This document shows, piece after piece, positions 23,253 through 44,221 of a stretch of DNA of 64,000 nt (its first letter is position 1; each line of letters begins with the position of its first letter). The notes beneath the pieces are model-generated. The model saw only the letters and a list, made by a program, of their open reading frames with translations. It ran no database searches and was not told where the DNA came from. Made by a program: the position numbers and the translations under genes. Source of the DNA: an uncultured archaeon (GTDB lineage: Archaea > Thermoplasmatota > Thermoplasmata > Thermoplasmatales > Thermoplasmataceae). Location: assembly GCA_000965745.1 (NCBI GenBank), contig CP009479.1, forward strand, positions 288,001 through 352,000, read 5' to 3'.

Positions 23253-23401
23253 ACAGGATGTTTGTAATCCTTTTGTGGCGGATCGAAAATGTTCAACTGC
23301 GGAATCTTAATGACATACGGGGAGAAGATGGCCCCCAATGTTGCATCAATCCATGCAGGAATTATGGAGATTGAATAAACCTGAAGATATGGACTCTTAA
23401 T

Positions 23402-24925
23402 CCTTAACTCTTTAGTTTTTACGTAACATGTTGAGGCTCACTCCAAGATCCGTCACCAGCTCTCTCGCCTTCTTCGGTATCTCTCCCATGATTTCCCCTC
23501 CCTCCAGGGCGTATATCTTGATCCTTGACAGGATCAGGAGAATGTCTCTCACGCTGTATTTCCCATCGGTCCTGTTGAGTATCTGGAAGTGAATGTTCAG
23601 TGCGAGAAGGTTGAGGAAGAGATAGGAAAAGAGCATGTGATCGTCCCCGAGATATGACCGATCCGCCTCCAGATCATTCTTGAACACATTGAATGCGTAT
23701 TCAACATACTCTCGCTGCTTGTACAGCCTGTATATCCTCTCCGGGCTCTCTTTGAGGTCGGAGAGAAGATGCACCTTCCCGAATACTTGTGAACCCTCCA
23801 GGAATTGCTTCCGGCTTCTCTTTCCCTGCATGACCCTCTCGAGATAGTCCTTCTCCTCCTCCATCCTCAGTACCGGATCCTCGAATGCATACACTCCACT
23901 CACTGGATTCCAGTATTTCACAGGCCTGCCATCATAATCGAAAACGCCGGTGAACTCACTCGAAGCAGGGATCAGCGATGAGTTCCTCTTCAGCGGAATT
24001 ATGTAGTCAAGATGCAGTTTCCTGAGCTTCTTTATGTTATCAGCCGAGTAAAATCCCTTGTCCGCTATGATCACGCACCGCTCAACCCCGGCCATGATCA
24101 TGGTAGCCTTCATCGTGGAAACATCCCTGATCGAGCCCGGAATGATCCGTATGAATGTTGGCTCTCTCCTCGTGGATGAAAACAGCATCATCAGGTTGAT
24201 CTGTGGCAGATGTGTTCCATGGGAGTTGTGGCCCATCTCCAGAATCGGTATGCTGGAGGATCTGGAGAATATTGCCGTGCTGTCGATGAGTATGTATTCC
24301 CCTCTTGCGCACAGTGATCGCATGACCTCAATCATGCTTTCCTCCGGAAGGGATGAAAGCATTCCAGAGATCGATTTTGCAGTCATGCCTTCATTGAAGA
24401 CCTTGGATAACCATGTCTTCTCGAAGAGATATCGTACCGACTTCATGGGGAGAGGTTGTATCTCCCTGAGAAGCACGTAGATCATGATCCTCTCATGCAG
24501 GTAAGGAAATACCTGCCTCAGCATGGGGAGGATGCTCTTCTCGGCGATTCCGTAGAGAAGGGCAATGTTCCCGTATTCGTAGTCTCCCCTTATCCCCGAT
24601 ATCGCCTGCTTCTTCACGATGCCCCGGGGAGTGACGACTCCAAGGTACTCCGGTGGAAGCGATACTGTCTTCTTCCTTACCCTGTCCCACTTCGTTCTGG
24701 GCCTGTATGCGTAATAATTGTTGCCAAAGTTCCTGATCTGGATCCTGGGTCCCTTGTATTTCTGCACCCAGTCAGGTAATTCATCCATGATACGTACATA
24801 TACATAACATGCATATAAGAATTCCGCGAGGGAAGCATATTCAGAAAGAACTCGAAAAGGCCGACAGATAAAACGAAGTCACGCGATAGGGAACAAACTG
24901 TTATGTAAAACTGGAAGAGTTAAGG
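23402..24925 (-). mobile_element. IS1634-like insertion sequence
   Basis: Imperfect ~28 bp IRs (CCTTAACTCTT...); 6 bp TSD CTTAAT at 23396-23401 and 24926-24931. Confidence 0.9.
23412..24788 (-). CDS. IS1634/IS4-like DDE transposase
   Basis: IDST, IADKGFYS, Y..R..VE.AF..FK. Confidence 0.9.
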   Translation of the reverse strand: MDELPDWVQKYKGPRIQIRNFGNNYYAYRPRTKWDRVRKKTVSLPPEYLGVVTPRGIVKKQAISGIRGDYEYGNIALLYGIAEKSILPMLRQVFPYLHERIMIYVLLREIQPLPMKSVRYLFEKTWLSKVFNEGMTAKSISGMLSSLPEESMIEVMRSLCARGEYILIDSTAIFSRSSSIPILEMGHNSHGTHLPQINLMMLFSSTRREPTFIRIIPGSIRDVSTMKATMIMAGVERCVIIADKGFYSADNIKKLRKLHLDYIIPLKRNSSLIPASSEFTGVFDYDGRPVKYWNPVSGVYAFEDPVLRMEEEKDYLERVMQGKRSRKQFLEGSQVFGKVHLLSDLKESPERIYRLYKQREYVEYAFNVFKNDLEADRSYLGDDHMLFSYLFLNLLALNIHFQILNRTDGKYSVRDILLILSRIKIYALEGGEIMGEIPKKARELVTDLGVSLNMLRKN

Positions 24926-25205
24926 CTTAATCCATAGGTCGGGGGTTCGAACCACCTCGGACCCGCCATATCTCTGTTTATTTCTGTGAGCATTTTCATT
25001 ATTGGATTTTTATTGAATATGAGAAAGTAGTCCATCTTTCAGTTTTGAATGTGGGAGAAACTTGGATTAGGCCAACTTGAAAGAAATTGCGATAATAATT
25101 TTAAATAAAATTGAATAAAGTGATGCGTCCAATTTATAAGGAGACTTCGTGATAGTTTGTCCACATCCTGTAAATCGTTCCCATTAAAAGTAGTTCCAAG
25201 TATCA

Positions 25206-26009
25206 TTGCTTAATATGACAATAACCCAAGCTTTAAGGTGTCAAAAAACCCCATCAGGTTTACCTGCTTATTCGCAAAGTGAAATTAAAATATGTACAAC
25301 ACTATATGTGATAGTGGAAAAACCAACTCAGGATGACCAACAGAAGAAGAAAGAAATCATAGTATTAGATCCGTCTGCCCTTCAATACTTGATTGACATT
25401 AGTCTGACTTTGCAGGATGGTTATGAGGTATTTCTACCGGATGAGTTGTATGAGGACTTGGATGAACAGAAAAGATTTTTCTTGATTAAGTTGTTAAACT
25501 ATTGGAACGGCTATAAGTTGTCAGATAAAAGAATCGACAAACTAATATCAGACATTAGAGGTGGGAAAAGAATTCATAAATTTTCAGAATTGGAGTTTGA
25601 ATATAATGATGAGGGAGACCTAACCCTTGAAGAACTTATCAAAAGCAGAAAGGGCCCCCGCGATAGGGAACTAAGATATTGGATTTTTAAAATCATTTCC
25701 AAAACTATAGCGTTTGCTAAGAAATTTCAAGCCTCTATCGTTTCAATGTCTAACAAATTGTTCGACTTACTTTCATCCACATCTATGAATATCTTAAACC
25801 TTTCAAAGGGGTATGTGAAATCTCTGAAAGAATTGCCAGTACTTGTCAGACTGTTGAAGGATAACAAATGGATCAAGAAGAGTAAAAAATACATATCATA
25901 CATAATTGATATGATATCTGGCATAATCGGAGCTTCTAGTATACATCCCATTCTGGGTGGGGCACTTGGAGTAACTGTCCCGAATGTTTTACTCGTGATG
26001 GACCCTTGA
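25206..26009 (+). CDS. PIN-like domain protein with hydrophobic C-terminus
   Basis: IIVLDPSAL..EVFLPDELYEDL resembles a PIN N-terminus; true start may be GTG ~25308. Confidence 0.5.
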   Translation: MLNMTITQALRCQKTPSGLPAYSQSEIKICTTLYVIVEKPTQDDQQKKKEIIVLDPSALQYLIDISLTLQDGYEVFLPDELYEDLDEQKRFFLIKLLNYWNGYKLSDKRIDKLISDIRGGKRIHKFSELEFEYNDEGDLTLEELIKSRKGPRDRELRYWIFKIISKTIAFAKKFQASIVSMSNKLFDLLSSTSMNILNLSKGYVKSLKELPVLVRLLKDNKWIKKSKKYISYIIDMISGIIGASSIHPILGGALGVTVPNVLLVMDP

Positions 26010-26131
26010 ATTTATTAAGTTGCTGGCACATCGAGGCCAGGGGTTTAAAGCTTAATCAAACGAAATTCAGCATAATTTATTTATACCGTTGAGTAAATGT
26101 TTCATTAAGTAGGAGTTTACCAAGATTTAGA

Positions 26132-26788
26132 ATGAACAGTGGATTCAGATATAAGAAGAACAGTGGATTTCATTACAGGCCTTACAAAAGGCCCAAAAGA
26201 AATAGGCGTCATGGTACTGTAACATGCTGCTGGTGCCACCAGCCCTTGTCAGACCCCTTAGCAAGGAGTAGGAGGATGGGATCAGATTGTTTTGCAAAAC
26301 ACAACGGTAGGTGCCCACCAGTGAGTTCTACATTTGGTGAGGTTTATTCACATAATCCTTTCGAAGATTCTGGTCTGGAACATCTCTACAGGGTTAGAAA
26401 ATCCCTTAAATTTCTATTTACGACAAAACTTGGTAGGTCTTTACTGTCAAATGCCATAGTTCATGCTTTGTCTCCTATACCAGGCATGGCTCCAGTTGTA
26501 GTAGCATATGATGTCTACAAGGCGTATAAATACGCAAAAATGGGGCATGAAGTCTATACCGCTGTTGAGCGTTGGAGGCAGCACGACAAAAAAGATTTGC
26601 TTAAGACGGAGGGAAACCTCCAAAAGGAAAGCGTTGATGACATAATGGAGAGAACACAAAGTTCAATAATGGATATGGCAACGGTAAATAGAATGGACGC
26701 AAGTTCTTATTCTGATATGATGAGAGGGACACTTTCGGAATCAGCAAGGCATGGATTTGATGAGTTTGCAGGGTTTGTATTGTCATAG
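26132..26788 (+). CDS. Zn-finger (DUF6011-like) hypothetical protein
   Basis: CCWCHQPLSDPLARSRRMGSDC motif; basic N-terminus. Confidence 0.55.
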   Translation: MNSGFRYKKNSGFHYRPYKRPKRNRRHGTVTCCWCHQPLSDPLARSRRMGSDCFAKHNGRCPPVSSTFGEVYSHNPFEDSGLEHLYRVRKSLKFLFTTKLGRSLLSNAIVHALSPIPGMAPVVVAYDVYKAYKYAKMGHEVYTAVERWRQHDKKDLLKTEGNLQKESVDDIMERTQSSIMDMATVNRMDASSYSDMMRGTLSESARHGFDEFAGFVLS

Positions 26789-26802
26789 GTGGGAATATAT
26801 AT

Positions 26803-27084
26803 ATGAGTAAAGAATCTGAAATAATAGGGGTAATCTCTGCGAGGAAATACGCACTTTTCGAAACGATCAAAACAGAGCTTTTGGGAAAAAGTGAATTGCA
26901 GGGGTATGACAAAGAAGAGCTTCAAGCAAAATTAAGAGACGCGATATCTACCCTTCCCAATATGATGTTTCTTAGCGAAGAGGAAAAGGAGACTAATAAA
27001 ATAAGACAAGAACTAAAACTTGAACAAATTGGAATTGCCGAGAAAGAAGTTTTTGAGAGGATCAGTAAATACTTGTCGAGTTAG
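26803..27084 (+). CDS. Hypothetical protein, partner of the upstream gene
   Basis: 14 nt after the upstream stop, SD-like GGTGG. Confidence 0.6.
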   Translation: MSKESEIIGVISARKYALFETIKTELLGKSELQGYDKEELQAKLRDAISTLPNMMFLSEEEKETNKIRQELKLEQIGIAEKEVFERISKYLSS

Positions 27085-27252
27085 ATTCCCTTCTTAAAAA
27101 GTCTCTTTTAAATTTTACTTTGTATTAGTCCATTTTGGCAAACGATAGATTTTTTGGGCATTTAATGGCCTTTTGCCATCATGCCGCATTGTAAGTGATG
27201 GGGGAGTGGAAGATTAGCGGAACCACGTTGACTTTGTAATGACAAAATCAAT

Positions 27253-28203
27253 CTATTTAAACAACAGATCCAGTATATATGGGGACGGCCCCAAAAGATA
27301 TTGATCCTCCTGGATCTTTCCTAAGTTCATCCCAATCCGAAAGGTTGGTCTTGGAGGGCTATTCTCTAGCGTTTCTATCACACGTTTTACTCTCTTATCT
27401 TCTTCTGAATATCCCACTACGAATACAGAGAAAAATTCCTCATTTATTCCTTGTTCAGACATATATTTTTCAAAATATTTGAACACGTAACCGTCTTCAT
27501 CGGGGAATACCCAACCTAGATTGCCTACTACATTATTTTCATCAAATTCCTCAACATCTCCATGAAATTTCCAAAGATTTCCCCTTGAAGCTACATGAAT
27601 ATTTTTGTTCACTTTTTTAAACTCTTTTGGAAGTCCCCTAATGGCTTTTTCTAATAGGTCGTCCCAATTGAGACTTATTATCTCCTTAATCTTGTTGGGA
27701 AAGTTTTCTGCAATTAACTGATGAGATATGCCGGGAGATTTTTTATCAAGCATTTCTCTAAAAACCTTCTTGAATTTGTAGCATTTTTTAGGGTCGTTTC
27801 GTAGGTCTACATAATCGATAGCTCCACAAAAACGTAATATATCTTTCAACTCATTAGAAAGAGGCATTCCACTTTCAAAAGAAAGTCCAGCACCTGCAAT
27901 GAAGATAGCTCCTTCAACATCGATCTTTTGTTTTGCAGCGCTCATCTTTGTATGCTGACCCAATATAGCTTGAAGAAACGTTCGAGAATACTCTTCAACT
28001 GTCTTAAGTTGTAATGAAGGGTTTAGTTTTCCAATTGTTTTGTCCTCTTCCGAGTACTTCTCCTTCACTTGGTCAAAAATTCTATGCAATATTGGCTCTA
28101 GATTCTCAAGGTTTTCTCTTATATTCGTCAGATAATTCTTCAAGAAACGCACAGTAGAACCTCGCAGAGCCTCAATTGAGGCATCACTTGTGCCAAAACT
28201 CAT
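27253..28203 (-). CDS. SIR2-like (SIR2_2) domain protein, putative NADase effector
   Basis: FIAGAGLS..SGMP, SLNWDDLLE, KFHGD, VVGYS motifs. Confidence 0.8.
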   Translation of the reverse strand: MSFGTSDASIEALRGSTVRFLKNYLTNIRENLENLEPILHRIFDQVKEKYSEEDKTIGKLNPSLQLKTVEEYSRTFLQAILGQHTKMSAAKQKIDVEGAIFIAGAGLSFESGMPLSNELKDILRFCGAIDYVDLRNDPKKCYKFKKVFREMLDKKSPGISHQLIAENFPNKIKEIISLNWDDLLEKAIRGLPKEFKKVNKNIHVASRGNLWKFHGDVEEFDENNVVGNLGWVFPDEDGYVFKYFEKYMSEQGINEEFFSVFVVGYSEEDKRVKRVIETLENSPPRPTFRIGMNLGKIQEDQYLLGPSPYILDLLFK

Positions 28204-29092
28204 TAAAATCGCCATGGACCCCCAATAGTCTCTTCGAGTATTCATCGTGGCTAATCACCCCATTTAGAAATTTCTTTCTCAACGCTGATGAAACGTTATC
28301 CACTTCGTTCAAAATTATCATCCTAAATTTGAAGTTGATTTGACTCTGTATTTTTTCAATTTCTTTAATGTTCTTTGACTTTTTTTCCACATTATTCTCC
28401 TCTAGCTTAGATTTCTCATCCTTGTATTCGATTGCAGAGTCCAATTCATCTAACTCTTTTTCGAGGTCCACCCCATATAGCTTTCTTCTATTGTCAAAGT
28501 CCTTGTTTAAAATTTTTTTAATGTATTGAAGATGGTTTCTTGAATACTTGTACAACTCAATAGCTTGGTTAAGTAATACTATGTTAGACAATGTTAGCAA
28601 AGTATTTTCCTTTGCCTGAGCATATGCCTTGGAAAGAGATTGATCCACAAAGTATTTGTCCAAACCGGAAAATCCAACTAACGTTGAATTTATCAATAAT
28701 TTCTTGTCTGTTGAATGTGTGATTGACGAGTCATTAAATCTTAGACCCGCTAAAGATGCAGACGGCCCGCTACTTTCCTTCTCAAGTGTCGTGCTTCCCG
28801 CCAATTCTTGAAGTTCTATGGCAGTTTCGCTCACTTTTTTTATTTTCTTTATGTTCTCCATCAGGTCAACTTTCTTCTCTTCTATCGCTTGCCTTTTTCC
28901 GCCCAACCTTTTAGTTCTGTACTTCTTAAGAGCAATACTTGAATCTCTCGGGCTATCAACTTTCTCAATGACCTCAAGTTGAAACTTTGTAGAATTCAAT
29001 AGCGTCGATAACCTCTCATATAACTCTTTTTGATCATATTGAGGGTATAGGCTGTACAAACGATCAATCAACTGACTGATGTCCATGTTCAT
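28184..29092 (-). CDS. Helical/coiled-coil hypothetical protein
   Basis: Long K/E-rich ORF; stop overlaps the SIR2 gene start. Confidence 0.7.
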   Translation of the reverse strand: MNMDISQLIDRLYSLYPQYDQKELYERLSTLLNSTKFQLEVIEKVDSPRDSSIALKKYRTKRLGGKRQAIEEKKVDLMENIKKIKKVSETAIELQELAGSTTLEKESSGPSASLAGLRFNDSSITHSTDKKLLINSTLVGFSGLDKYFVDQSLSKAYAQAKENTLLTLSNIVLLNQAIELYKYSRNHLQYIKKILNKDFDNRRKLYGVDLEKELDELDSAIEYKDEKSKLEENNVEKKSKNIKEIEKIQSQINFKFRMIILNEVDNVSSALRKKFLNGVISHDEYSKRLLGVHGDFNEFWHK

Positions 29093-29096
29093 TGCA

Positions 29097-30011
29097 TCAC
29101 TTCAATTCTCTTTTTAAGGTCTGTGACATTAATTCTGATAATTTGTTTCTGAACTCTGGGGGTAGTTCAATTACTCCTTCCTTTGATTTGGAATCTTGGT
29201 TGATTTCCATGAACACAATGAAGGCTTCCCTCCATTTTCTGAGATATTCCCACACAGTCTTAGTCGTTCGTCCTTCATCTTCAATTATATCTTTCAAATT
29301 GTTTATGGTCTCAAAGTAGGCTGATTTTACTTTTTCTTGATAAAGCTTCGTATCCATTTTCAAAAAGCTTTTTGTATAATCAAATAACCAATCCATAGAC
29401 ATCAAAAGAGCGAGAAATAAGATGTCTCCCTTTACATACCCGGTTAGATTTCCAATTCGTTGTGCTTCGTTAATGACTCCTTTAAAGAGATTGTTTGAGG
29501 GAAAGAGGAGATATTCCTTAGAAGAAATCAAGAAATCAATCAACCACTTAAAGGACGCTTCTGTATGTAATATGTCAATTTCTCTTTCATAGTATGCTTC
29601 ATCTTCTCTAACATCATGTTCGAACTTCCTAAATGCATTCCTAAAGTTCAAGAAGAGGTTCCATAAATTTTCAGTCGCATTCTTTCCTCTTAAATCTAAT
29701 GAGCCTAAGTGAGTGAGTAGTTCTGTCCCAGGGAGCCTTGCTTGGCTTAGATATTCTGTCTCAAGCTTAGTTGGGTCTTGATTCGAAAATGCTGTATAAT
29801 TTATTGCGGCAATTCTAATTATAAAGCCAGCTATACCGGAATTTATGTCATTTGAAATCATAGCGTCCGAGAGAACTCTATTGGAGTATATTGTCATAAA
29901 AAAGTAATCGGACTTATCGAAAGCAGCTTGAGCAGCTTCAATATGATCTCTTATCACCCCATGATCTTTTGTGCTAGACACTCCTAAAACCACCAAGTTA
30001 TCGACAAACAA
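29097..30011 (-). CDS. Helical hypothetical protein
   Basis: 304 aa ORF ending 4 nt before the next ATG; start uncertain. Confidence 0.7.
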   Translation of the reverse strand: MFVDNLVVLGVSSTKDHGVIRDHIEAAQAAFDKSDYFFMTIYSNRVLSDAMISNDINSGIAGFIIRIAAINYTAFSNQDPTKLETEYLSQARLPGTELLTHLGSLDLRGKNATENLWNLFLNFRNAFRKFEHDVREDEAYYEREIDILHTEASFKWLIDFLISSKEYLLFPSNNLFKGVINEAQRIGNLTGYVKGDILFLALLMSMDWLFDYTKSFLKMDTKLYQEKVKSAYFETINNLKDIIEDEGRTTKTVWEYLRKWREAFIVFMEINQDSKSKEGVIELPPEFRNKLSELMSQTLKRELK

Positions 30012-30255
30012 TAAAGTGAGTCTATGTTTGCCATCTTGTCACAATATAAACTGCAATATTAAAATTTAGCAGACGGCATACACTCTAGTGCATGAATGTG
30101 CTATGGCATTTTCAAAATCTTTGAATGGCCCATAAACTATGAGACAATAACCCCGTTTAGGACCATGACTAAATTTGGCTCAAGTCAAGGATTTCCAACC
30201 TTAGCAAGCATTTTGATAAACAGTAATTTTTTTGGACTAAGAGTATAGCTAGATA

Positions 30256-31440
30256 TTATTTTGTTTCTGCATGATGTAATTCGAAGAATTTTCTTTTCAA
30301 TAACCTGTCATCTGTGCCATGAGTCAAATAATTCTCAAGCATACCTAATTGAAAGATACTATTTGTGAAGTCAATAGCTCTCAAAATCGAATCAAGAATG
30401 TCACTGATTGCAAGAATGCTACTTCCAACAATCTTAAACTCTGTCGATTTCGTTTTGGACCCCTTGGCAAATTCATTTATGCCTTCAAGGTGAATCCTTT
30501 CCTTTTTGGTTCTGAGTATCTTCACGAAATGACATAGAATAGGGTCAAATTCCCCATTTATTTCCCTTTCATCTGGTCTTTCAATCGTTATCCAATCAAA
30601 GAAGGCTTTAGTACTATCTGGAAATGTCAATATTGCTCTTGAAATGACTGACCCACGCTGGTCTTCATTTATTAATCTAATAATGCTTGCAATTACATCT
30701 TCAGGTGGATATTTTTCGAACCCCAATAATAAAGCTGTTCCAAGGGCTTGATCCGAGCTAAGTTTCCATGATTCTTTTAATTCCAGAGCCCTTCTCTTTC
30801 TCTCTTCTGTGGATTTTTCCAAATTTTTGACGCTTCCTCTGAATTTAGGCATTTTTTCACGGAAAAAATTAGCTTCATTAAGATTAGAACTTCTTTTGAT
30901 TAAGTCCTCTAGGTGATTAACCACAAGGTCTGGAAAGATTAGGGTATCCTCGTAGGGAGTGTTTGAATTCATGTCTTCTGTTAGAACCCGGTGAATATCA
31001 ACGTCGGGAATGAGTTCTTCACTCATGATATACTTAGCGGCATCGGCGAATCTTAGTGAATAAAGGACAGCAAACTGCCTAAACCAAGGAGAAACCATAA
31101 AATCATGTAAAATATCATTTCCCAATGCACACATATACTGAAAAGTCAAGGGCACACGGACACTTCCCTTAAAGGATAGACTGTAGTGGATTTTCTTCTT
31201 ACTTTGAGATCTTGTTCTATTATACTCATCTTTTTGGTTACCATCGGAGTGTACTATTCCTTGAGAAATTAGAACAGATAAGTGATTTCTAATTGTCCTT
31301 TGTTGAGATATACCTATTTCCTTCGATAGAATTGTTGTTATTTCCTTTAGACTCTTATAGCCAGTTGCCAGAGCATTTATGATATACCCCCTAGTCTCAT
31401 TCGGGAGGCCCCTTTGACCAACCTTTCGCTTTGTAACCAC
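30256..31440 (-). CDS. N-terminal wHTH domain hypothetical protein
   Basis: LKEITTILSKEIGISQQRTIRNHLSVLISQGIV is a wHTH-like pattern. Confidence 0.65.
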   Translation of the reverse strand: MVTKRKVGQRGLPNETRGYIINALATGYKSLKEITTILSKEIGISQQRTIRNHLSVLISQGIVHSDGNQKDEYNRTRSQSKKKIHYSLSFKGSVRVPLTFQYMCALGNDILHDFMVSPWFRQFAVLYSLRFADAAKYIMSEELIPDVDIHRVLTEDMNSNTPYEDTLIFPDLVVNHLEDLIKRSSNLNEANFFREKMPKFRGSVKNLEKSTEERKRRALELKESWKLSSDQALGTALLLGFEKYPPEDVIASIIRLINEDQRGSVISRAILTFPDSTKAFFDWITIERPDEREINGEFDPILCHFVKILRTKKERIHLEGINEFAKGSKTKSTEFKIVGSSILAISDILDSILRAIDFTNSIFQLGMLENYLTHGTDDRLLKRKFFELHHAETK

Positions 31441-31653
31441 TGGTGATTAGTCAGATTGAGTATTTTAGCTTTTGTAAATTTAACATATGATTCTTTTTCT
31501 CCTAATTTACATAAGTCTCTTTCATATCCCGTTATACCTTACAGAATTGTTAAAACATGCATAGGATTCATCTATAAGTGATCCCCGCCCATTCAAAAAA
31601 ATTGCCATATCTGTTGTGGATAACATTAGCATTGATTTCGTTTTTCTTATTTT

Positions 31654-33674: not shown

Positions 33675-33857
33675 ATGAAATACCGCAAAAATAGGTATGA
33701 TGAAGGAGAGACTTGTCGGTCCACAATACTGACAGTCTCCCTCCCAAAGGAGATGCTGGCCACAATAGATGAAGCGGTACGAGTCCTTAAGACCGACCGC
33801 TCGAAGGCTGTGAGATACGCCATAGAACAGGTGTACGGGCTCATGAAAAAGGAGTGA
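33675..33857 (+). CDS. Ribbon-helix-helix (CopG-like) protein
   Basis: ILTVSLPKEMLATIDE...RSKAVRYAI. Confidence 0.75.
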   Translation: MKYRKNRYDEGETCRSTILTVSLPKEMLATIDEAVRVLKTDRSKAVRYAIEQVYGLMKKE

Positions 33858-33864
33858 AAAAAAG

Positions 33865-35387: not shown

Positions 35388-35535
35388 GACCACAATTTAC
35401 ACGCCTAACAACATTTTGTTTTATGATGTCTGTGGTGCAGATTCCTTTAAAACCTACGAATCTCTCAGGATTTCCGTCATTATAAGTAACCTTGAGTGCA
35501 ATATCCATTTTTATCGCCTCTCCTGAAGCAAAGGA

Positions 35536-36627
35536 TTATCTGAAGATGCTCGAAGTGTCCTTAGCCTTAAGCATTTCTTCAAGCGTTTCCACAAATCTAA
35601 TTCCGGGCATAAAGAAATCTGGCCCCCTCTTAATTGGCTTAAAATCTTTAATCTCTTCCCCCAGGGAAAAAAAGACAGTTTTTCCACTCGAGTAATCATC
35701 ATTATCTTCGAGTGCATCAAAACAATTCTTCCAGCTTTTGGCTATTGACATATCACCTCGTTTTATTTCTTTAATAGCGTATAAATGGGTTATTGCACTT
35801 TGTTCTGGTTCGTAGGTCGCGAGATACTTTGGTTGCCTGTTTCTCCTCAATTGGAAAAATCCATAGCCTCCCGTTTCTTCAATGAAGTTTATCCCAGTGC
35901 AGGGACTATAGGTATTAGCAGAACAAACAACTACTTCCGGAGAATTAGCAGCCTTACTGTTATTATTATCGTAGTTATATGTACCGTTTTGCTCTGCTTG
36001 TGGGCCCTGTGGGGCCAAAGTAACTTCTATGTCCAGATTATCAACTATAAAATCGGGTGAAACTTTCAATTTATCCGAAATATAATCTAATACTTGGCTT
36101 CTTATTTGTGAAAAATCTTCCTTTATAAAACTAGATAATTTGTCTCTTAGACCCTCTTGCTTTTGAATGGAATCCAGGAAGTTTGGATATGAATCTTTTG
36201 ACAGGCCAAAAAATATCTCTATGCTCTGCCCACTTACCCACCGATAAATTGGGGTACTTTTGTCTATATGGTATACTAACAACTCCCTTCCGTTATAGAG
36301 ACAACCATATTGGGCCCTGACAACCCCAATATATGAGTTTACTTGGTCAGAATAGGCTTCCAAATCATACTCCTCTGGACCTTTAGCTTCAATTACTAAG
36401 CGAGAGTTTCCATTTTCAAGAACATAATCTGGGGTGATCCAATTGCCAGAGCCCACAGGATAGGATTCCTCAATTTTTACGTCTTCAACAAGATCCCAGC
36501 CCAGTTCCTCTATCAATTTAGTGAGCACCAACTGTCTTAAGCGACTTTCTTTTCCCAATATTTCTTCACCTAGTTTTACAAGTCTTGCTACTTCCATTCT
36601 ACGTTCCATGTATTTATCCTCCCGCAC
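35536..36627 (-). CDS. HsdR N-terminal-like PD-(D/E)xK nuclease protein
   Basis: E..LR..V...L...LGW, PDYVL, VIEAK, QV.SY, LYNG. Confidence 0.75.
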   Translation of the reverse strand: MREDKYMERRMEVARLVKLGEEILGKESRLRQLVLTKLIEELGWDLVEDVKIEESYPVGSGNWITPDYVLENGNSRLVIEAKGPEEYDLEAYSDQVNSYIGVVRAQYGCLYNGRELLVYHIDKSTPIYRWVSGQSIEIFFGLSKDSYPNFLDSIQKQEGLRDKLSSFIKEDFSQIRSQVLDYISDKLKVSPDFIVDNLDIEVTLAPQGPQAEQNGTYNYDNNNSKAANSPEVVVCSANTYSPCTGINFIEETGGYGFFQLRRNRQPKYLATYEPEQSAITHLYAIKEIKRGDMSIAKSWKNCFDALEDNDDYSSGKTVFFSLGEEIKDFKPIKRGPDFFMPGIRFVETLEEMLKAKDTSSIFR

Positions 36628-36820
36628 TCATTTTAGCTATGTTTTCTAGACTCATAATATCCAGCACCCACTTGTCGAAATACAAGGTATTTTTTCCGTC
36701 AGCAAATTTGCCACGAGTGTAAAGTGAGAGAAATATTGCAAGTCATTCTCATTACTCAAAAAAATAATATAAAATTTCCTATGTTTTACAAGACTTAATG
36801 AATTCAAAAACCAAATTAAA

Positions 36821-38077
36821 GATCGTGTGCATAAAGTGATGTAATTTTAAAGAGGTCCCGCAAAATTTGGAATTAGGAGGACCAAAAGATGCAGGACCAG
36901 TTGAACATGGTAGAGGAATTAATAAGCACTTTCCTGAATGACAATCAGGAAGGGAAGAAACAGCTGATCGAGTGGTTTCTGAACGAAGTCATGGACAGGG
37001 AAGCGATGGATCAGATCAGGGCGGAGTGGTATGAAAGATCTGAGCAGAGGAAAGCACACAGGAATGGCAAGAGGAAGAGATCACTGAAGACATCGGACGG
37101 CGATCTGATGCTGGAGAAGCCCCAGATACCTGAGTTTCCATTCGAAACACAGGTATTTGACCGGTACAGCAGAGTCGAGAGAGCAGTTGAATCAGCAATC
37201 CTGGAATCGTACATACAGGGTGTCTCAACAAGGAGAGTGAAGAGCATTGTTGAGACCCTTGGGATACGAAAAGTATCCCCGTCCTATGTCTCATCACTCT
37301 CCTCCGATCTGGATCAAAAGGTGAAGGAATTCCTTGAGCGTCCCATAGAAAAGGAGATCAGGTACATGTATGTGGATGCCACATACATCAAGGTACGCCA
37401 GGATTCAAGGTACAAAAGCATGGCGCTGTACATTGCTGCTGGCGTGAGAGAGGATGGATACAGGGAAATCCTGGGAGCAAGGCTTTATGACTCTGAGACA
37501 GAAATCGACTACGAATCATTCTTCGATGATCTTAAGGATCGCGGTCTGAGAGGCTTAGAGCTGGTGATATCAGATGGCCATAAGGGAATCAGGGAGGCTG
37601 TACTCCGATCTTTTCCGGGTGCATCATGGCAGTTCTGCCATGTGCATTTCATCAGGAACCTGATGAAGAAGATTCCAAAGAAAAGATGGGGGTCAGTATC
37701 ACTCATAGTGAAGGAATCACTTGAGAATCCTTCACTCATGCCTCTGGCACAGCAGGCATTGATGGATCATGGAATGGACAGGGCTGCTGAGATGTACGAG
37801 CGATGGTCGGATTCACTGTACAACTATCAGTCCTGTCCACAGCAGCACTGGCGCAGGATAAGAACAACAAACATGATGGAGCGTCTCAATTACGAGATCA
37901 AGCGTCGTACAAAGAAAGTGGGTGCGTTTCCATCTGAGAAAGCGTTGATCAGGTTGGCAGGAGCGGTGTTGATGGACGTGAATGAGGAGTGGATCACTGG
38001 GCGAAAGTATTTGAGAATGGAGGAGTTGCACGGTGGGGGAGTCCCTCTTTAATTTACAGCACTTGGTGCACATGACC
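36821..38077 (+). mobile_element. IS256 family element
   Basis: Imperfect 27 bp IRs GATCGTGTGCATAAAGTGATGTAATTT / rc GGTCATGTGCACCAAGTGCTGTAAATT; no TSD visible. Confidence 0.88.
36889..38052 (+). CDS. IS256 transposase
   Basis: GVSTRRV, VDATY, ISDGHKG, QFCHVH, TTNMMERLN.EIKRR. Confidence 0.95.
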   Translation: MQDQLNMVEELISTFLNDNQEGKKQLIEWFLNEVMDREAMDQIRAEWYERSEQRKAHRNGKRKRSLKTSDGDLMLEKPQIPEFPFETQVFDRYSRVERAVESAILESYIQGVSTRRVKSIVETLGIRKVSPSYVSSLSSDLDQKVKEFLERPIEKEIRYMYVDATYIKVRQDSRYKSMALYIAAGVREDGYREILGARLYDSETEIDYESFFDDLKDRGLRGLELVISDGHKGIREAVLRSFPGASWQFCHVHFIRNLMKKIPKKRWGSVSLIVKESLENPSLMPLAQQALMDHGMDRAAEMYERWSDSLYNYQSCPQQHWRRIRTTNMMERLNYEIKRRTKKVGAFPSEKALIRLAGAVLMDVNEEWITGRKYLRMEELHGGGVPL

Positions 38078-38408
38078 TGCGAGATAGGTATTCCACTATG
38101 TTTTGTGGTGAACTCAATATCAAGCCCTTAAAGTATTTATTGAGGTAGTTTTCAAGGCTCTTTTGGTAGTTTTTCTCGTATCTATTGGCCTTCATCCAGG
38201 TCATAAAACCTTCAGACATATTCACAACTAATTGGACTTGTGGTTTCACTTCATTTGAAGAGGGTTGACCAAATGGTGTAAAGCCACCATTGAAAAACTC
38301 ATTCAATCTTGCGTTCACCCATTGGTATAAGTTGATGCCAAAATCCTGTGCTTTTTCAACTAAATCCCCTCTTAGATTTAGTGTGGTAATTTTATTGCCT
38401 CTTTCCAT
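38078..38408 (-). pseudogene. CcdA-like/integrase N-terminal fusion truncated by IS256
   Basis: TTLNLRGDLVEKAQDFGINL (CcdA-like) then F..WM...Y...Y...L.NYLNKY (integrase SAM-like); frame runs into the IS end. Confidence 0.55.
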
Positions 38409-38642
38409 ATTACTTATTATCTCGCAGTATTTAAAACGTTACAAAATTTTTGAGTTCCTTTATTGTGGGAAAATGCCTATTTGATGGGGTGAGAGAAAGA
38501 ATATAAGAAAAATTATATTTGCAATAAAGCAAGTTTGACAGATACAGAGCACCAAACAAGTTTGGATAACGAACTTATTTTACCGCAATAATAAATAAAT
38601 ACCACTAAATTGTATTCTTTTGGCTACAAAGGGAATGCGGAA

Positions 38643-40394
38643 ATGACTTTATCTGAAGACATCGAGGAATTATATTTATCAGAAATACTCAAAATGACTG
38701 GAAGGGAGGAACGTTTAACTAGAAATCCTTTACTAACTGAATACCAAAAACAGGGTTTTAAAAATGTACTAGCTTCATTGATAGATAAGAATGCTCAAAA
38801 TAGGGATTATCTAGCTAAATGTGATTTATTTAATAGAAGTCTTTTAATTTTAGGGATAAAACCTGTAAGAAACTCTTTTTTTGAAATAGTATTTGAAAAT
38901 ACAGATTTTTCTAACATTGACCAAGTAAAATTAGCAGTAAAAAGGTTCAGAGTCATTGCCATGTTAGAGTATGGTAGTTTTAGATTCGCTTACAAGATTC
39001 TAAAATTTGGTGAAGACAAACTTAGAGATATCACTCTGAAGGAAATATATGAAACATATTTTCCCAAAGGTGAGAAGTTAAAGGAGAGGAACAAGAAATA
39101 TAATGATAAAGTGGAACCAATTGGATTGAGGAACATTCCTCCAAGCACATTATTCGTATTGGGGTACTTGGCAGGTGAGCAGTCGAAGAGAGTCAATGAT
39201 GCAAGAGTCAAGCTCAAAGAAATACTAGAAGATGCTCTCACCAAGCAGAACATGAAGAATTTTGCCGATTTGAAAAAACTTGCAGAGAAGCACAATGAGA
39301 AAAATTTGAACCTTCTGGCAACTAATGCGGAAATTTCTGGTATGGAACGGTTATTGCTCCCTTCTTTCTATGCACCAAACGAAACTTATTCTGATGTGAT
39401 AAGGGGCATTCTAAAGGACTGCATCTCAATAGGTCAAGATGAATTTGATCAAGCGAGGAGGAACGGAAGTTTGAATACCACTACATATCTTGGATTGCAG
39501 GAAATTGATGCTTATCTAGCAACTTCTATGAGAGACCCGCTTCACTTTACCACAAATCATGCGTTCATCAAATCTTTGTTCTCAAATCCTCAATTAAAAG
39601 ATTGGAAAATTCATTATTTCGACCCTACCCAATCATACATGGAGAATAGAATAGAGAAAGGTTTAGTAGAGTCCTTAATGATTAAACGGTCTAAAGTAAC
39701 GATTTACAATGCTCAAGAATCTGATACCTTCGGGAAAGATTCAGAAGCTGCAGTAGCACTAGCTCAAGGTAAAGAAGTGATCGTATATGTTAGCAGGCTA
39801 TTCTCCAAATCACCTGAATTTAAGGAATTATATGAGATAATAGATAAAGCTACTGAATTCGATACACCTGATGAACTTGTAAATATCTTCGTTGAAAGGA
39901 AATTTTTGACCTCGGAAGAGGCTAAACAACTTTTAGTTCCTGGGAAATCTAAGGGAGATGCAATAGAACGGGTGTCTAGTGAGTATTCAAACAAGATCTT
40001 ATCAAAATTTGATGAACTCCAAATTGCAACTGAACTTATGTATTATGGTTATGATCCAGAATGGGAAAAGGGCTATCCTGCAAGTAATGCTTCTAAACAT
40101 ATTTCAAAGTTAGAGAGGAGGGCACTAACATTTAAAGATGTTCACCCATTATCATTTCAGGTATCGGCACTAGATGGTGTCGCTAGGGGCGTTATCGTCA
40201 CACGTTCTGTTGATGATACTGCCCATGTACTCAAAGGACTCCTTGTGGGAAATCTAAGTTATGATATTATAGATAATGATTCAAATGCTATTCTTTTGGA
40301 GCAAAAAACTCGTTCTCCTATGAGGGTGGTCACAAAAGAGCCAACCTTAACAACTTCATTCTGGAGTGAGTTTTCGCGTGAAACCCGAAATTGA
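38643..40394 (+). CDS. Large protein with a central nucleoside 2-deoxyribosyltransferase (NDT)-like Rossmann domain
   Basis: AYLATSM..YFDP..MIKRSKVTIY..DTFGKDSEAAVALAQGKEVIVY. Confidence 0.6.
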   Translation: MTLSEDIEELYLSEILKMTGREERLTRNPLLTEYQKQGFKNVLASLIDKNAQNRDYLAKCDLFNRSLLILGIKPVRNSFFEIVFENTDFSNIDQVKLAVKRFRVIAMLEYGSFRFAYKILKFGEDKLRDITLKEIYETYFPKGEKLKERNKKYNDKVEPIGLRNIPPSTLFVLGYLAGEQSKRVNDARVKLKEILEDALTKQNMKNFADLKKLAEKHNEKNLNLLATNAEISGMERLLLPSFYAPNETYSDVIRGILKDCISIGQDEFDQARRNGSLNTTTYLGLQEIDAYLATSMRDPLHFTTNHAFIKSLFSNPQLKDWKIHYFDPTQSYMENRIEKGLVESLMIKRSKVTIYNAQESDTFGKDSEAAVALAQGKEVIVYVSRLFSKSPEFKELYEIIDKATEFDTPDELVNIFVERKFLTSEEAKQLLVPGKSKGDAIERVSSEYSNKILSKFDELQIATELMYYGYDPEWEKGYPASNASKHISKLERRALTFKDVHPLSFQVSALDGVARGVIVTRSVDDTAHVLKGLLVGNLSYDIIDNDSNAILLEQKTRSPMRVVTKEPTLTTSFWSEFSRETRN

Positions 40395-40611
40395 AGCACA
40401 ACTATATGAATTCACAATCACCTAAATTATAGAAACTCTCAAAGGGTATTTAGGGGTCCAAAACACTGAATGTTATTTACACGCAAAGAGAAGGATACCT
40501 TTCCAAATTATCAAAGTAAATTTTTCAATCATTTCCTCTATCAGTTTGATAACTCATTGCCATGTAATACTCATTGGACAAAACAGTCAGAAATGCTTCC
40601 AGAAGTAAGTC

Positions 40612-40800
40612 GGACTCTTAATCCATAGGTCGGGGGTTCGAACCCCTCCGGACCCGCTAAATACCTGTTTGCTTCTGTGAGCATTTTCATTAGTAGAATT
40701 TTTTAAGACGGCAGAAAGGTATCCATCTTTCAGTTTTGAATGTGGGGGAACTTAGGATTATGCCAGCTTGAAAGTAATTCTTGTATTACGGGTAATACAG
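40612..40800 (+). repeat. tRNA-Lys(CUU) 3'-half + conserved arm, copy 2
   Basis: GGACTCTTAATCCATAGGTCGGGGGTTCGAACCCCTCCGGACCCG plus arm ending in palindrome TGTATTAC-GG-GTAATACA. Confidence 0.92.
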
Positions 40801-40962
40801 ATTGGAAGGCAAATATTTATGAGAACTTCTCACTAATTTATTCAACCATAGAAAATAACGGTTCAAATATCGACTGAGGCCCTACAACCGACGTCTTACA
40901 GTCACTTATTCCACTGACTTGGAAAGACCTAATATTATACACACACATATATGTGTGATATC

Positions 40963-41202
40963 ATGGGAAGCAAAAACATTTCTATCTCCGACGAAGCTTA
41001 TTCCAGACTGAAAAAGTTCAAGGGAAAGAATGAGAGTTTCACAGACGTGATAAACAGGTTGACAAACAAAGCCACTCTGCTGGACCTCAGGGGAACACTA
41101 ACACAAGATGAGGCAGAATCTATGCTGAAAAATATAAACGAAGCGAGGAAGTTGAGCGGGAAAAGATACCAGAACATTAGCGAGATGCTGGAGCATCAAT
41201 GA
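40963..41202 (+). CDS. vapB: VapB-type antitoxin
   Basis: KNISISDEAYSRL..K..NESFTDVI.RL. Confidence 0.85.
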   Translation: MGSKNISISDEAYSRLKKFKGKNESFTDVINRLTNKATLLDLRGTLTQDEAESMLKNINEARKLSGKRYQNISEMLEHQ

Positions 41203-41591
41203 TTGCTGATACCACATTCCTCATAGACATAATGAGGGGAGACCGTTCAGCCATAGAAAAGGGAGAGGAACTGGAAAGAGATGGGGTGCAGGTCAACATA
41301 ACTACAGTTTCCGTATTTGAACTATACGTGGGGCTTAACTCAAGTATCAGGCCAATAGAGGAGAAGAACAAAATCGACAAGGTTCTTGGAAATATTGTCG
41401 TTCACCACTTCGATTTTGATGCTGCAAGAGAGGCCGGAGAAATATTCGCAGACAAAAAACGCAGGGAGCTAACCATTGATCCAGAAGACGCTATGATAGC
41501 AGGGATATGCATCTCCAATGAAGAACCCATTCTGACTAGAAATGTCAACCATTTCTCAAACATTGGCAGACTAACAGTTGAGTCTTATTGA
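41199..41591 (+). CDS. vapC: VapC PIN-domain toxin
   Basis: DTTFLID, VFELY.G, DAMIAG, LTRN..HF; ATGA overlap. Confidence 0.9.
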   Translation: MIADTTFLIDIMRGDRSAIEKGEELERDGVQVNITTVSVFELYVGLNSSIRPIEEKNKIDKVLGNIVVHHFDFDAAREAGEIFADKKRRELTIDPEDAMIAGICISNEEPILTRNVNHFSNIGRLTVESY

Positions 41592-41771
41592 ATTATGGTG
41601 ATATCAGTTTGACTCTGTTTCTTCAAACTTTGGTACCCTACTGCAAGGGGCTTTAATCACATGGACTGAATATCAGACAAAGGGCCTGACGGGAACTGAA
41701 TACAATTACCCCAGTTACGTATATCCTACAAGCAATCAGTACGACAGTTTCCATATAGCATATGAGTTGTC

Positions 41772-42314
41772 ATGACCTCTAATAAACCTAAATTCCTTCA
41801 CCTTCTATTTTTCTTTTTTGCTCTAGCATCAGTTGCCTTTATTCTCTATTATCAGGGTTATGTACTACGCCCCGTTTATTCCTCAGATTACTTCATCTTT
41901 TCGACACCCCGTATACTCAAGCTGTCGTTCCTATTGCCCTCAATACTGACTTTGTCGTTTTATCTTGAAATCTACTTGGGACTGTATGCATCTTTATTGA
42001 TTCTCTTGAAACATCATAGAGTAACATTCTTTTCGTTCTTCGTATCATTAATTTTGATTGATGTGATTACGTACCATCAATTTGAATATTTCTGGGGAAC
42101 TGCCTCGGGATATCAGGGTTTCCCACAAGGAGCGGGGTCTTGGCTAGTCCAGTATTATCATATATCTGGATACTATGCAGCCATTTTCAACGCTTCGTTT
42201 ATGATATCCATAGGAACTGCACTGGCCGGACTTGCTATTGGAATTAAATTGTTAATAGATAAATATAGAAAGGCACACACTGAGAAAGTCCCTGAAAAAT
42301 CTGGAAAAACATAA
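41772..42314 (+). CDS. Multi-pass membrane hypothetical protein
   Basis: About four hydrophobic, aromatic-rich segments. Confidence 0.65.
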   Translation: MTSNKPKFLHLLFFFFALASVAFILYYQGYVLRPVYSSDYFIFSTPRILKLSFLLPSILTLSFYLEIYLGLYASLLILLKHHRVTFFSFFVSLILIDVITYHQFEYFWGTASGYQGFPQGAGSWLVQYYHISGYYAAIFNASFMISIGTALAGLAIGIKLLIDKYRKAHTEKVPEKSGKT

Positions 42315-42457
42315 GAAAACGACAACAATCGGAGAATACGGAGAGTTGAGACACTCTATTCTGTTAAGACAGATTGATTACGGCAAGGACCTTCTGTTGA
42401 AATTTTCGTTTTACTACATGAAAAATGCTTAATACGGCTAACCGTATATACGCCTGT

Positions 42458-42742
42458 ATGGTTAAGAAGAAAATAACCGTATCAATAGACAAACCTGTTG
42501 TTGACAGCGCTAAGTTGGCACTGTTGAAAAAAGGGAAAACAATGAGCGATTACATCGAAAGAACACTGAGATCACTCTCTACTTCAAGTATACTTAATGA
42601 TATTTGTGAAGAGCTCAACTTAAATTGCAGATATGTGACCGGAGAAGAAGTGGAGAGGCAAAGGCCCGATCTTACCGGGAAGGTACTGTCTGAAATGGAG
42701 GTCAGGGAGATGCGGGATGAGCGTAGCTCGCGTTTATCTTGA
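42458..42742 (+). CDS. RHH-type antitoxin
   Basis: KKKITVSID...AK......MSDYIE; overlaps the PIN gene. Confidence 0.75.
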   Translation: MVKKKITVSIDKPVVDSAKLALLKKGKTMSDYIERTLRSLSTSSILNDICEELNLNCRYVTGEEVERQRPDLTGKVLSEMEVREMRDERSSRLS

Positions 42743-43157
42743 TACCAGTATATTGGTTAAGAGATACATAAAAGAGGCTGACAGCGAAATAGCTGATGCT
42801 GTTTTCCATCAGGCACAGCGTGGAGAAGCAGTTATCTGTTCCTCAGAAATCAATCTTGGAGAAGCGGCAGTTGTTTTCGATAAATACTCAAGAAAAGTCG
42901 GGATTGATGCACGAGACCGCTTACAGACCATGTTGAGTGAGTTGAATTCTCTGGAAAGATCTTCTGCTTTTGAAATCTATCCGGTTAGTAGCCATATAAT
43001 CAGGAAATCAATTAGTACTTTACTGGAGCATCATATTTACATTGTGGATGCGGTTCAACTTGAAACGTGTGTTGAGGCAGAAGGAACAGTTTTCTTCACC
43101 GCAGACAGGGAATTAAAAGCAGTGGCTGAAAGAATTGGTTTAAAAACACAATTGTGA
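42717..43157 (+). CDS. vapC: VapC PIN-domain toxin
   Basis: YLDTSILVKRY..E, DAVQL, FFTAD. Confidence 0.88.
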   Translation: MSVARVYLDTSILVKRYIKEADSEIADAVFHQAQRGEAVICSSEINLGEAAVVFDKYSRKVGIDARDRLQTMLSELNSLERSSAFEIYPVSSHIIRKSISTLLEHHIYIVDAVQLETCVEAEGTVFFTADRELKAVAERIGLKTQL

Positions 43158-43268
43158 TCTCCCGGAATAGTACATTGCAAGCGTTTTCAAAAGACCACCA
43201 TTTCTTGGAAATTAGTAAGTTTCACAGAGCACTTGTAATAATGAGGCCACAGACTTAGGTGCTGAGGT

Positions 43269-43455
43269 ACTCTTAATCCATAGGTCGGGGGTTCGAACCC
43301 CCTCGGACCCGCTTAATCCCAGTTTACTTGTGGGAGGACTTTCATTATGGGATTTTTGTGAGCTGGCAGAAAGGTATCCGTCTTTCACTTTGTATTGCGG
43401 GAGAATTTAGGATTAGGCTGGTTTGAATGTAATTTTTGTATTACAGGTAATACAG
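43269..43455 (+). repeat. tRNA-Lys(CUU) 3'-half + conserved arm, copy 3
   Basis: ACTCTTAATCCATAGGTCGGGGGTTCGAACCCCCTCGGACCCG plus arm ending in TGTATTAC-AG-GTAATACA; exact 2655 bp offset from copy 2 throughout. Confidence 0.92.
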
Positions 43456-43538
43456 GCAATATAATTTCGATGTGAAATTTTCGCGGAGTAATGGAAGTAG
43501 TTTGCCCATAATCTTTAATCCTATCAGAATAAACAAAT

Positions 43539-44039: not shown

Positions 44040-44221
44040 TGTTCTGACTATAGTCTGTTAAAACCTGTCCAACCCCAGAGAATAACGGGTTAAATATAGA
44101 CTGTGCATTAATCTACTTGGTAAAAAGCAGCCTAAGAGAGGACCTATGAATAAAAGAGTCACATTTTTCTAGAATTTTATTACCCGAGCAAATTGTTACA
44201 TTTATGATTTTATACAGTGAT

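Follow-up and report, generated by a model that had tools for sequence, protein, structure and literature searches.

In bacteria, composite arrays of cis-mobilizable elements (CIMEs) are described as arising in three steps: an element integrates, it decays to a unit that is flanked by attachment (att) sites and has no integrase, and a further element integrates into a retained att site (PMC5704250). In archaea, tandem integration and loss of the integrase are also known; the cuts made by IntSSV1 border the anticodon loop, and only pTN3-like integrases are described as targeting the 5′ half of a tRNA gene (PMC8371274). For acidophilic archaea, a survey of genomic islands reports tRNA-linked islands that carry MazEF, RelBE and VapBC (PMC12302457), and the passages of it considered here contain no description of the att architecture presented below. 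Here, an array of repeats derived from the tRNA-Lys(CUU) gene is analysed in a 64,000-nucleotide stretch of DNA (the window; genome positions 288001–352000) from the 2.23 Mb single-contig genome (99.4% complete; G000) of an uncultured archaeon of the Thermoplasmataceae. These repeats are likely to be the att junctions of a family of archaeal integrative elements, whose tandem accretion and decay would have left the array frozen at this locus. Positions are those of the window unless given as genome positions, and other genomes and their contigs are denoted by G and C numbers.

Three direct repeats derived from tRNA-Lys(CUU)

A repeat search of the window showed one repeat family with three direct copies of 187 nt, at 24923–25109 (copy A), 40614–40800 (copy B) and 43269–43455 (copy C). 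The copies align without a gap at 76–82% pairwise identity, with spacings of 15691 and 2655 bp, and their similarity is far beyond chance: in a nucleotide search of the 2.23 Mb genome, copy B matched copy C with E = 6e-49 and copy A with E = 8e-41. All copies begin inside GGACTCTTAAT of the tRNA-Lys(CUU) anticodon arm, with GGACTCTTAATCCAT or a slightly shorter version of that arm, extend to the 3′ end of the tRNA and continue into a non-coding arm of 140–190 bp, so that the repeats are tRNA halves with arms, arranged as direct repeats. The intact tRNA-Lys(CUU) gene lies at genome 78610–78684, 234 kb away; in the window, ARAGORN found no tRNA-Lys, and no Lys 5′ half occurs. The genome contains a fourth copy of the Lys half (copy D, genome 1186643–1186890).

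Copy A is interrupted by a 1524-bp insertion sequence (IS), at whose ends the 6-bp target duplication CTTAAT is found (23396–23401 and 24926–31). The 15-mer at 23389–23403, a 15-nt match to the tRNA-Lys(CUU) anticodon arm, is therefore the left part of copy A, in which the anticodon stem-loop ATGGACTCTTAATCCAT was whole before the IS arrived. The 3′ strands of the T-stems differ among the copies. That of copy A (CACCT) has one mismatch, that of copy C (CCCCT) is the one of the resident tRNA-Lys, and that of copy B (CCCTC), in which pairing with GGGGG is still complete, is also the strand of the functional tRNA-Lys in the relative G006. The occurrence in copy B of a variant found in a functional tRNA of another genus fits halves that were imported by different elements. 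In these respects the initial annotation, which had recorded the three ungapped repeats, their T-stem variants and the lack of a tRNA-Lys 5′ half, was accurate, and different sources of the tRNA halves are supported as well.

The arm itself does not appear to encode a product, as translating nine copies in all six frames revealed no conserved reading frame; the possibility that it is a fragment of an SSV-type split integrase gene, int(N), was rejected on the same ground. Rfam returned only two tRNAs at the gathering threshold and nothing at E ≤ 1 in 40500–43700, leaving the arms without an RNA family.

A conserved P arm and three target tRNA genes

The left flanks of copies A, B and C are mutually dissimilar, as had been observed initially, when the repeats were taken to be one-armed. 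The left flank of copy B, however, is a conserved P arm that recurs at two other sites of the genome (beside copy D, 1186643–, and at 1599582–1599443) and in at least 14 other genomes, the 14 with strong matches belonging to many genera of the family. Every P arm inspected at the sequence level (8 of these 14 genomes) abuts a core of the same type, with a tRNA half beside it. The modules are thus two-armed and not one-armed. Among the non-canonical left flanks, no second type of P arm was found to be common beyond same-genus pairs.

At genome 1599443, the sequence behind the P arm and the core GGACCCTAAATCCAT is not a Lys half but the 5′ half of tRNA-Leu(UAG) in reverse complement, together with approximately 65 bp of its upstream flank; a TATA-like box in this flank precedes the tRNA start by approximately 30 bp. 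Read in antisense, the anticodon arm of tRNA-Leu(UAG), ATGGACCCTAAATCCAT, is closely similar to the arm of tRNA-Lys(CUU) in sense. A third version of the module, containing the antisense arm of tRNA-Leu(UAA), is found in G001:C14 as well as in the region of this genome that closes with copy D. At both tRNA-Leu genes the P and P′ arms stand in reverse orientation, and the duplicated part is the 5′ half with its TATA-containing flank; one P arm serves tRNA-Lys 3′ halves and, reversed, the 5′ halves of tRNA-Leu(UAG) and tRNA-Leu(UAA). This is a clear case of one integrase and arm set with both 3′-half and 5′-half targets, addressed through the near-palindromic anticodon arm, and it bears on how integrases change their targets.

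Behind the tRNA half and a flank specific to the target, the Lys, Leu(UAG) and Leu(UAA) versions share one distal arm (...GGTATCC.TCTT.CAG...GGGAGAA.TTAGGATTA...TTGAAAGTAATT...). Being common to all three, this arm belongs to the element, as its P′ arm, and not to the native flank of tRNA-Lys. It also follows the intact tRNA-Lys in G013 and G006. Variable islands of 5 kb (G006), 11 kb (G013) and 42 kb (G000) lie directly after tRNA-Lys before synteny resumes, and the arm in such places can therefore be the P′ arm of a resident element. The alternative assignment of the arm to the chromosomal flank of tRNA-Lys was dropped in view of these islands and of the distal arm behind tRNA-Leu 5′ halves. 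The motifs AGAAGGATAC / AGAAAGGTATC and CAGAA(A/G)T / TTGAAAGT-like recur in both the P and the P′ arms, and would be candidate arm-type sites within these long arms.

The cognate integrase in relatives and its remnant in the window

Related elements with an integrase gene were found in two settings. In G074:C91, an intact tRNA-Lys(CUU) with the arm is followed, after 6.99 kb, by the P arm, a Lys half and the arm again. The interior contains an open reading frame (ORF) of 94 residues and, behind it, one of 180 residues that matches PF16795, ‘Archaeal phage integrase’, from end to end (3e-37); an internal deletion of approximately 25 codons, starting after ...IVEYLSR (approximately residue 115; G074:C91 5965), probably renders this integrase inactive. 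G105:C5 contains a single intact integrase ORF of 324 residues (PF16795, E = 4.7e-42), the start of which lies roughly 140–220 bp from a canonical P arm, core and tRNA-Leu(UAG) 5′ half. The PF16795 scores in the elements of relatives are 128–152 bits. The att site lies outside the int ORF, beyond its start in G105:C5 and separated from it by cargo genes in G074 and in the window, which makes the layout of this PF16795 integrase a non-suicidal one.

The window retains the N-terminal third of the same integrase. The ORF at 38049–38408 on the minus strand shares 86% amino acid identity with the 94-residue ORF of G074 and 51% with residues 1–115 of the G105 integrase (Int), and positions 38080–38500 are 89% identical in nucleotides to G074 5544–5965. 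The homology ends exactly at the boundary of an IS of the Mutator family (38079/38080). The catalytic half was found neither beyond this IS nor anywhere in the genome: PF16795 has no match in the window or the whole genome, and tblastn of the genome with three integrases of the family returned only N-terminal remnants. The initial report that the window has no intact integrase therefore holds, to which two remnants are to be added, this cognate one and an unrelated one at 55809–56756. Together with the P arm at copy B, the N-terminal remnant identifies the 15.7-kb unit between copies A and B (E_A) as a decayed autonomous element, the P′ arm of which is the arm of copy A. With no cognate catalytic integrase in the genome, the array is immobile at present unless an incoming element supplies Int. 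Integrases of this family were detected in 14 of the 103 Thermoplasmataceae genomes, representing 8 of 20 genera, and in 5 of the 15 genomes with strong P-arm matches.

A second Int remnant, at genome 2070959–2071306, covers residues 1–115, is 90% identical to the Int of G001 and is cut near residue 115. Its start is overlapped by a 52-bp perfect repeat of the tRNA-Leu(CAG) 3′ half, 2.4 kb downstream of that tRNA (genome 2068864–2071346). Breaks near residue 115 are thus seen in the window (IS insertion), in G074 (deletion) and in this copy, and could reflect either a hotspot or a shared history.

Arrays of toxin–antitoxin cassettes

Arrays of two to five half-tRNA repeats are present in five relatives. 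There are three Lys halves in G018:C59, beside tRNA-Val and without a Lys 5′ half, two Lys halves in G079:C20 with no tRNA nearby, four to five Leu halves in G018:C54, Leu(UAG) arrays in G043:C30 and G003:C141, and a Leu(UAA) array in G001:C14. The intervals, 1.1–2.8 kb long and without an integrase, encode MazEF, VapBC or RelE-type pairs, small membrane proteins or a methyltransferase (MTase), and integrase-less toxin–antitoxin (TA) cassettes of this length bounded by modules occur in at least six genomes.

The genome analysed here has two further loci of this kind. At 1599443–1600589, a 1076-bp unit with a canonical P arm lies between the intact tRNA-Leu(UAG) and its displaced 5′ half with promoter flank; its only cargo is an RHH-like antitoxin and a MazF toxin (PemK_toxin, 2e-25), and it is also present in G003, G018 and G043. 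The array at genome 1181200–1186890 starts at tRNA-Leu(UAA) and ends with the P arm and the tRNA-Lys 3′ half of copy D. Its cargo comprises RelE-like and VapBC genes and an ArsR/transporter operon, with repeated starts made of the distal arm and a small ‘MAK...’ ORF that has no Pfam match. Since a Lys half closes an array of the Leu(UAA) type, copy D is a hybrid junction, which implies that Leu-type and Lys-type sites or arms recombine between loci. The unit between copies B and C in the window (E_B, 40612–43267) resembles the MazEF unit (genome 1599457–1600533) in being att-flanked and in containing only TA or membrane genes, with no genes for integration or transfer, as in CIMEs; it has no integrase, and its right end is without a canonical P arm.

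Homologous cassettes occur in different orders. In G018:C54 the order is VapBC-a, MTase-MazEF-P and VapBC-b, and in G043:C30 it is VapBC-b and MazEF-P, the latter being found alone in G000 and G003. The transporter-P unit precedes a VapBC unit in G001:C14, the reverse of the order in the copy D region, and G018:C59 and G079:C20 are mutually permuted. The blocks of homology between cassettes end at the repeats. MazEF-P of G000 is 87.8% identical in nucleotides over 839 bp to that of G043, a member of another genus, and 79% identical to that of G003 of the same genus; housekeeping orthologues of same-genus species share 70–79% protein identity, and the other genera are without close orthologues. 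These comparisons make a good case for horizontal movement of integrase-less units or of DNA in which they are contained.

Genomic setting and gene content of the window

To the left of the array, synteny with the same-genus contig G001:C25 extends up to a GNAT gene (21146–21670), and to the right it resumes from tRNA-Phe (59240–59312). Between these flanks, G001 has 8.1 kb of unrelated DNA in place of the 37.6 kb of the window (21.7–59.2 kb). The block composed of the Lys half, arm C, (GNAT) and the MazF pair is found at other genomic positions in G001:C14, G018:C59 and G079:C20, where it adjoins tRNA-Glu(CUC) in G001 and tRNA-Val(GAC) in G018. Given these other positions and the hypervariability of the stretch, the window array is an orphan array. 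The array has no intact target tRNA at either end; one is present in the relative G074:C91 and, in this genome, at the tRNA-Leu(UAG) locus. A native site near tRNA-Val(GAC), as in G018, was also considered, and no similarity beyond the tRNA was found. The DNA methylase gene (19409–20611) and the GNAT gene at 21146–21670 are conserved in G001 and G003, the methylase gene appearing inverted in G001; through this conservation within the genus they are assigned to the backbone and not to the island.

The features of the array are listed in Table 1. The domains SIR2_2, HSDR_N_2, PIN, PemK/MazF and GNAT were confirmed in the window, in agreement with the cargo first proposed. The label NDT, given to the 594-residue ORF between int and the P arm, was not reproduced by Pfam, NCBIfam, PHROGs or PADLOC, and this ORF has no family match; the corresponding slot in G074 is occupied by other genes. 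The SIR2_2 protein has two upstream partners of no confident family, and PADLOC gave only weak SIR2/ThsA-like and Csa3-like matches.

Table 1. Features of the repeat array in the window
Feature	Position	Strand	Details
Copy A, left piece	23389–23401	+	Anticodon stem-loop ATGGACTCTTAAT, including the left duplication CTTAAT; matches the anticodon arm of tRNA-Lys(CUU)
IS in the anticodon loop of copy A	23402–24925	−	DDE_Tnp_1 ORF 23412–24788; 11-bp terminal inverted repeats CCTTAACTCTT
Copy A, right piece	24926–25170	+	Duplication, tRNA-Lys 3′ half (to ~24966) and P′ arm with type-1 distal end (TATA-like box and short gene start)
E_A cargo	25171–38048	.	Unknown ORFs, SIR2_2 operon, HTH, two IS, HSDR_N_2
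SIR2_2 operon in E_A	27253–30011	−	Three genes
HTH protein gene in E_A	30256–31440	−	
IS in E_A	31654–32921		99.8% copy at genome 1–1268
HSDR_N_2 nuclease in E_A	35536–36627	−	Stand-alone
Mutator-family IS in E_A	36813–38078		More than 6 genome copies
N-terminal domain of cognate SSV-family integrase	38049–38408	−	Homology to G074, G105
594-residue cargo ORF	38610–40394	+	No family match; variable slot between int and P arm
Canonical P arm	40486–40611	+	Ends ...CCAGAAGTAAGTC beside the core
Copy B	40612–40860	+	Core GGACTCTTAATCCAT (40612–40626), tRNA-Lys 3′ half (to 40659), P′ arm with type-2 distal end
E_B cargo	40951–43157	+	VapB/PIN pair, 180-residue ORF, DUF6364/PIN pair
Copy C	43267–43481	+	Core (GTACTCTTAATCCAT), tRNA-Lys 3′ half, P′ arm
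GNAT gene and MazF/antitoxin pair after copy C	43539–44750	−	

Other integrases of the genome belong to PF00589. The truncated gene at 55809–56756, the only PF00589 match in the window, is unrelated to the cognate integrase and homologous to the 437- and 441-residue integrases of the genome. Between 18 and 50 kb in the window, no remnant of the PF00589 integrases of the genome was found. The truncated gene forms part of a separate small tRNA-Phe island (55721–59312), in which it is preceded by 14 bp that exactly repeat the 3′ end of tRNA-Phe (55721–55734) and followed by PIN_3, two unknown ORFs and tRNA-Phe (minus strand). Elsewhere in the genome, two PF00589 integrase frames (748467–749465 and 1306383–1307339) extend into tRNA genes encoded on the other strand, reaching the 3′ ends of tRNA-Pro(UGG) and tRNA-Met; att thus overlaps the 3′ end of int at these genes. 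Genes for 437-residue integrase-like proteins directly follow both tRNA-Ala genes (genome 390407– and 602508–).

Model of array formation

The proposed elements would encode a tyrosine integrase of approximately 324 residues, made up of an N-terminal domain of approximately 115 residues and a catalytic domain of the SSV family (PF16795). Their attP site would be modular, with a P arm of approximately 140 bp beside the int promoter, the core, one tRNA half with its flank and a P′ arm of approximately 110–190 bp. The core would correspond to the anticodon stem-loop, with the inverted repeat ATGGA/TCCAT around a 7-nt loop. By analogy with IntSSV1, Int is predicted to bind the inverted-repeat stem as its core sites and to exchange strands across the 7-nt loop, in keeping with the tRNA-derived att sites and the anticodon-loop crossover that were already part of the initial annotation and are supported here. 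Such a crossover would swap one half of the host tRNA (the 3′ half of Lys; the 5′ half of Leu with its promoter) for the copy carried by the element, and would push the displaced half, with the arm behind it, to the far end. New integrations into any site bearing a core would then add units, producing tandem repeats of ‘half-tRNA and arm’ with halves of mixed origin.

In the window, E_A would represent a full-length element, the integrase of which was destroyed by the Mutator IS and a deletion, and E_B (2.66 kb) and the block after copy C would be integrase-less remnants or satellites consisting of TA genes. The TA genes may favour retention of their units, and loss of int would freeze these in place. 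The array lies away from tRNA-Lys; integration at a secondary core-like site probably seeded it, or core-to-core or arm-to-arm recombination moved it there. More tentatively, the TA and defence cassettes of 1–3 kb with a complete attP may be non-autonomous archaeal mini-elements moved in trans by the SSV-family integrase of relatives, and retargeted by swapping the tRNA half (Lys 3′, or Leu 5′ with promoter in the opposite orientation). Mobilization of such small integrase-less units in trans, which the initial annotation had proposed, is plausible: integrase-less TA cassettes are permuted among arrays, and their identity across genera is far above background.

Several observations weigh against the interpretation as att junctions of an integrative element family. 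The integrase of G074 is itself broken. No tRNA-Lys 5′ half adjoins the window array, and the founding integration is consequently not reconstructed. No pair of empty and occupied sites at single-base resolution and no clean empty site was recovered; in same-genus genomes, candidates for an empty tRNA-Leu(UAG) site proved to be contig ends or the paralogous tRNA-Leu(CAG). A free, circular form carrying attP was not found either, with 0 matches when patterns were scanned for in viral contigs and, in two scans, in metagenome contigs. Finally, copies A and C have left flanks other than the canonical P arm, from which it follows that E_B is not a complete unit of the family.

Other readings of the array account for part of these data. 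The initial annotation had proposed an integron-like platform, that is, a dedicated chromosomal site at which one-armed, non-autonomous cassettes are inserted and excised by an integrase acting in trans, in the manner of attI and attC. The distribution of integrase-less TA cassettes bounded by modules (at least six genomes), the differing order of homologous cassettes (MazEF-P relative to VapBC-b, transporter-P relative to VapBC), the 88% nucleotide identity of the MazEF cassette across genera against 79% within the genus, where housekeeping proteins are 70–79% identical, and the low frequency of Int among the genomes of the family and among those with strong P-arm matches would all be compatible with it, and the observation that the units are now integrase-less stands. 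The platform is nevertheless improbable, since the genome has no resident integrase or attI-like anchor and no cognate catalytic domain, the integrase is carried by the elements, beside the P arm in autonomous relatives, the sites are two-armed, arrays occur at several tRNA genes and at orphan loci, and E_A, the largest unit of the window, derives from an autonomous element by decay; the pattern is, moreover, already known in bacteria as CIME formation and accretion (PMC5704250). Ordinary integrase-carrying relatives, which the initial annotation had itself set against the platform, are largely what was found, in the intact tRNA-Lys of G074:C91 and with the intact Int of G105:C5. Duplication of a segment of the tRNA-Lys locus, yielding pseudogenes with native flank and involving no site-specific recombination, would explain the likeness of the arm to the sequence behind the intact tRNA-Lys of G000, G013 and G006. 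It is hardly credible given that all copies start at the same few bases of the anticodon arm, that a conserved non-tRNA P arm abuts the core, that the distal arm is also present behind tRNA-Leu 5′ halves, and that the DNA after tRNA-Lys is a variable island (5, 11 or 42 kb); the common P arm and the Leu-type modules effectively refute it.

A closer alternative is decay without mobilization in trans, by which each small unit would be an independently integrated full-length element reduced by deletion, TA genes being the last to go, and changes in order would come from homologous recombination between the repeats of 190–390 bp. Decay is in progress in E_A, with an IS in int and the catalytic half deleted, and is evident in the internal deletion of the G074 int and in the second Int remnant at genome 2070959–2071306; the length of the repeats is sufficient for homologous recombination, and a hybrid Leu(UAA)/Lys junction is seen at copy D. 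As a full account it is nonetheless rather unlikely, because the minimal unit of MazEF and P arm recurs in four genomes of three genera, in differing array contexts and without leftover element DNA, and its similarities are discordant with taxonomy. Several elements are unlikely to have decayed independently to the same unit. Tandem accretion and decay of att-bounded elements thus remains the preferred explanation, with transfer of the smallest units as its more tentative part.

Comparison with known systems

The closest parallel is provided by CIMEs and tandem accretion in bacteria, as described for ICESt1/ICESt3 and for tRNA-Lys(CTT) of Streptococcus agalactiae (PMC5704250). Both share att-flanked units without integration genes, decay followed by re-integration, and composite arrays at a tRNA-derived site, which in one bacterial case is also tRNA-Lys. 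The system analysed here differs in its archaeal host, its SSV-family integrase and the lack of a conjugation module. The crossover would lie in the anticodon loop and not at the 3′ end as in CIMEs, the att repeats are much longer (190–390 bp), arrays occur also at orphan loci, and units often consist only of a TA pair.

With SSV-family and pTN3-like integrases (PMC8371274, PMC7253208), the family shares the PF16795 catalytic domain, a tRNA target and a core consistent with the anticodon loop, and the Leu-type modules resemble pTN3-like integrases in using the tRNA-Leu 5′ half (PMC8371274). In contrast to the ‘suicidal’ SSV-type integrases, the att site lies outside the int ORF, roughly 140–220 bp upstream of the int start. 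Unlike SSV and pTN3-like systems, one arm set is used for the Lys 3′ half and, in the opposite orientation, for the Leu 5′ halves, and the host belongs to the Thermoplasmata, which are not among the lineages named in the survey legend of PMC8371274.

The likeness to integrons consists in arrays of small integrase-less units, often TA pairs, with a repeated recombination site and variable order. In contrast to integrons, there is no platform integrase to the left of copy A, no attI and no Pc; the att sites are tRNA-derived and equipped with arms, and would be double-stranded, as opposed to a folded attC, and the integrase resides on autonomous members of the family. The ssrA islands of Dehalococcoides, in the part of their description considered here (PMC3146451), are similar in site-specific integration at a small-RNA gene by a lineage-wide mechanism, and differ in integrase family, in the location within the target and in arm structure.

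In the literature considered here, we found no description of one arm set serving Lys 3′ and reversed Leu 5′ halves, of a non-suicidal PF16795 layout, or of abundant TA-only units with a full attP. The analysis documents a tRNA-integrating element family in acidophilic Thermoplasmata and traces a ‘defence island’ to a defined recombination system, with its units delimited. It also calls for caution, in that orphan arrays of half-tRNA repeats need not mark a former tRNA gene. The array offers a testable archaeal counterpart of CIME and satellite mobilization, with TA pairs as the minimal cargo.

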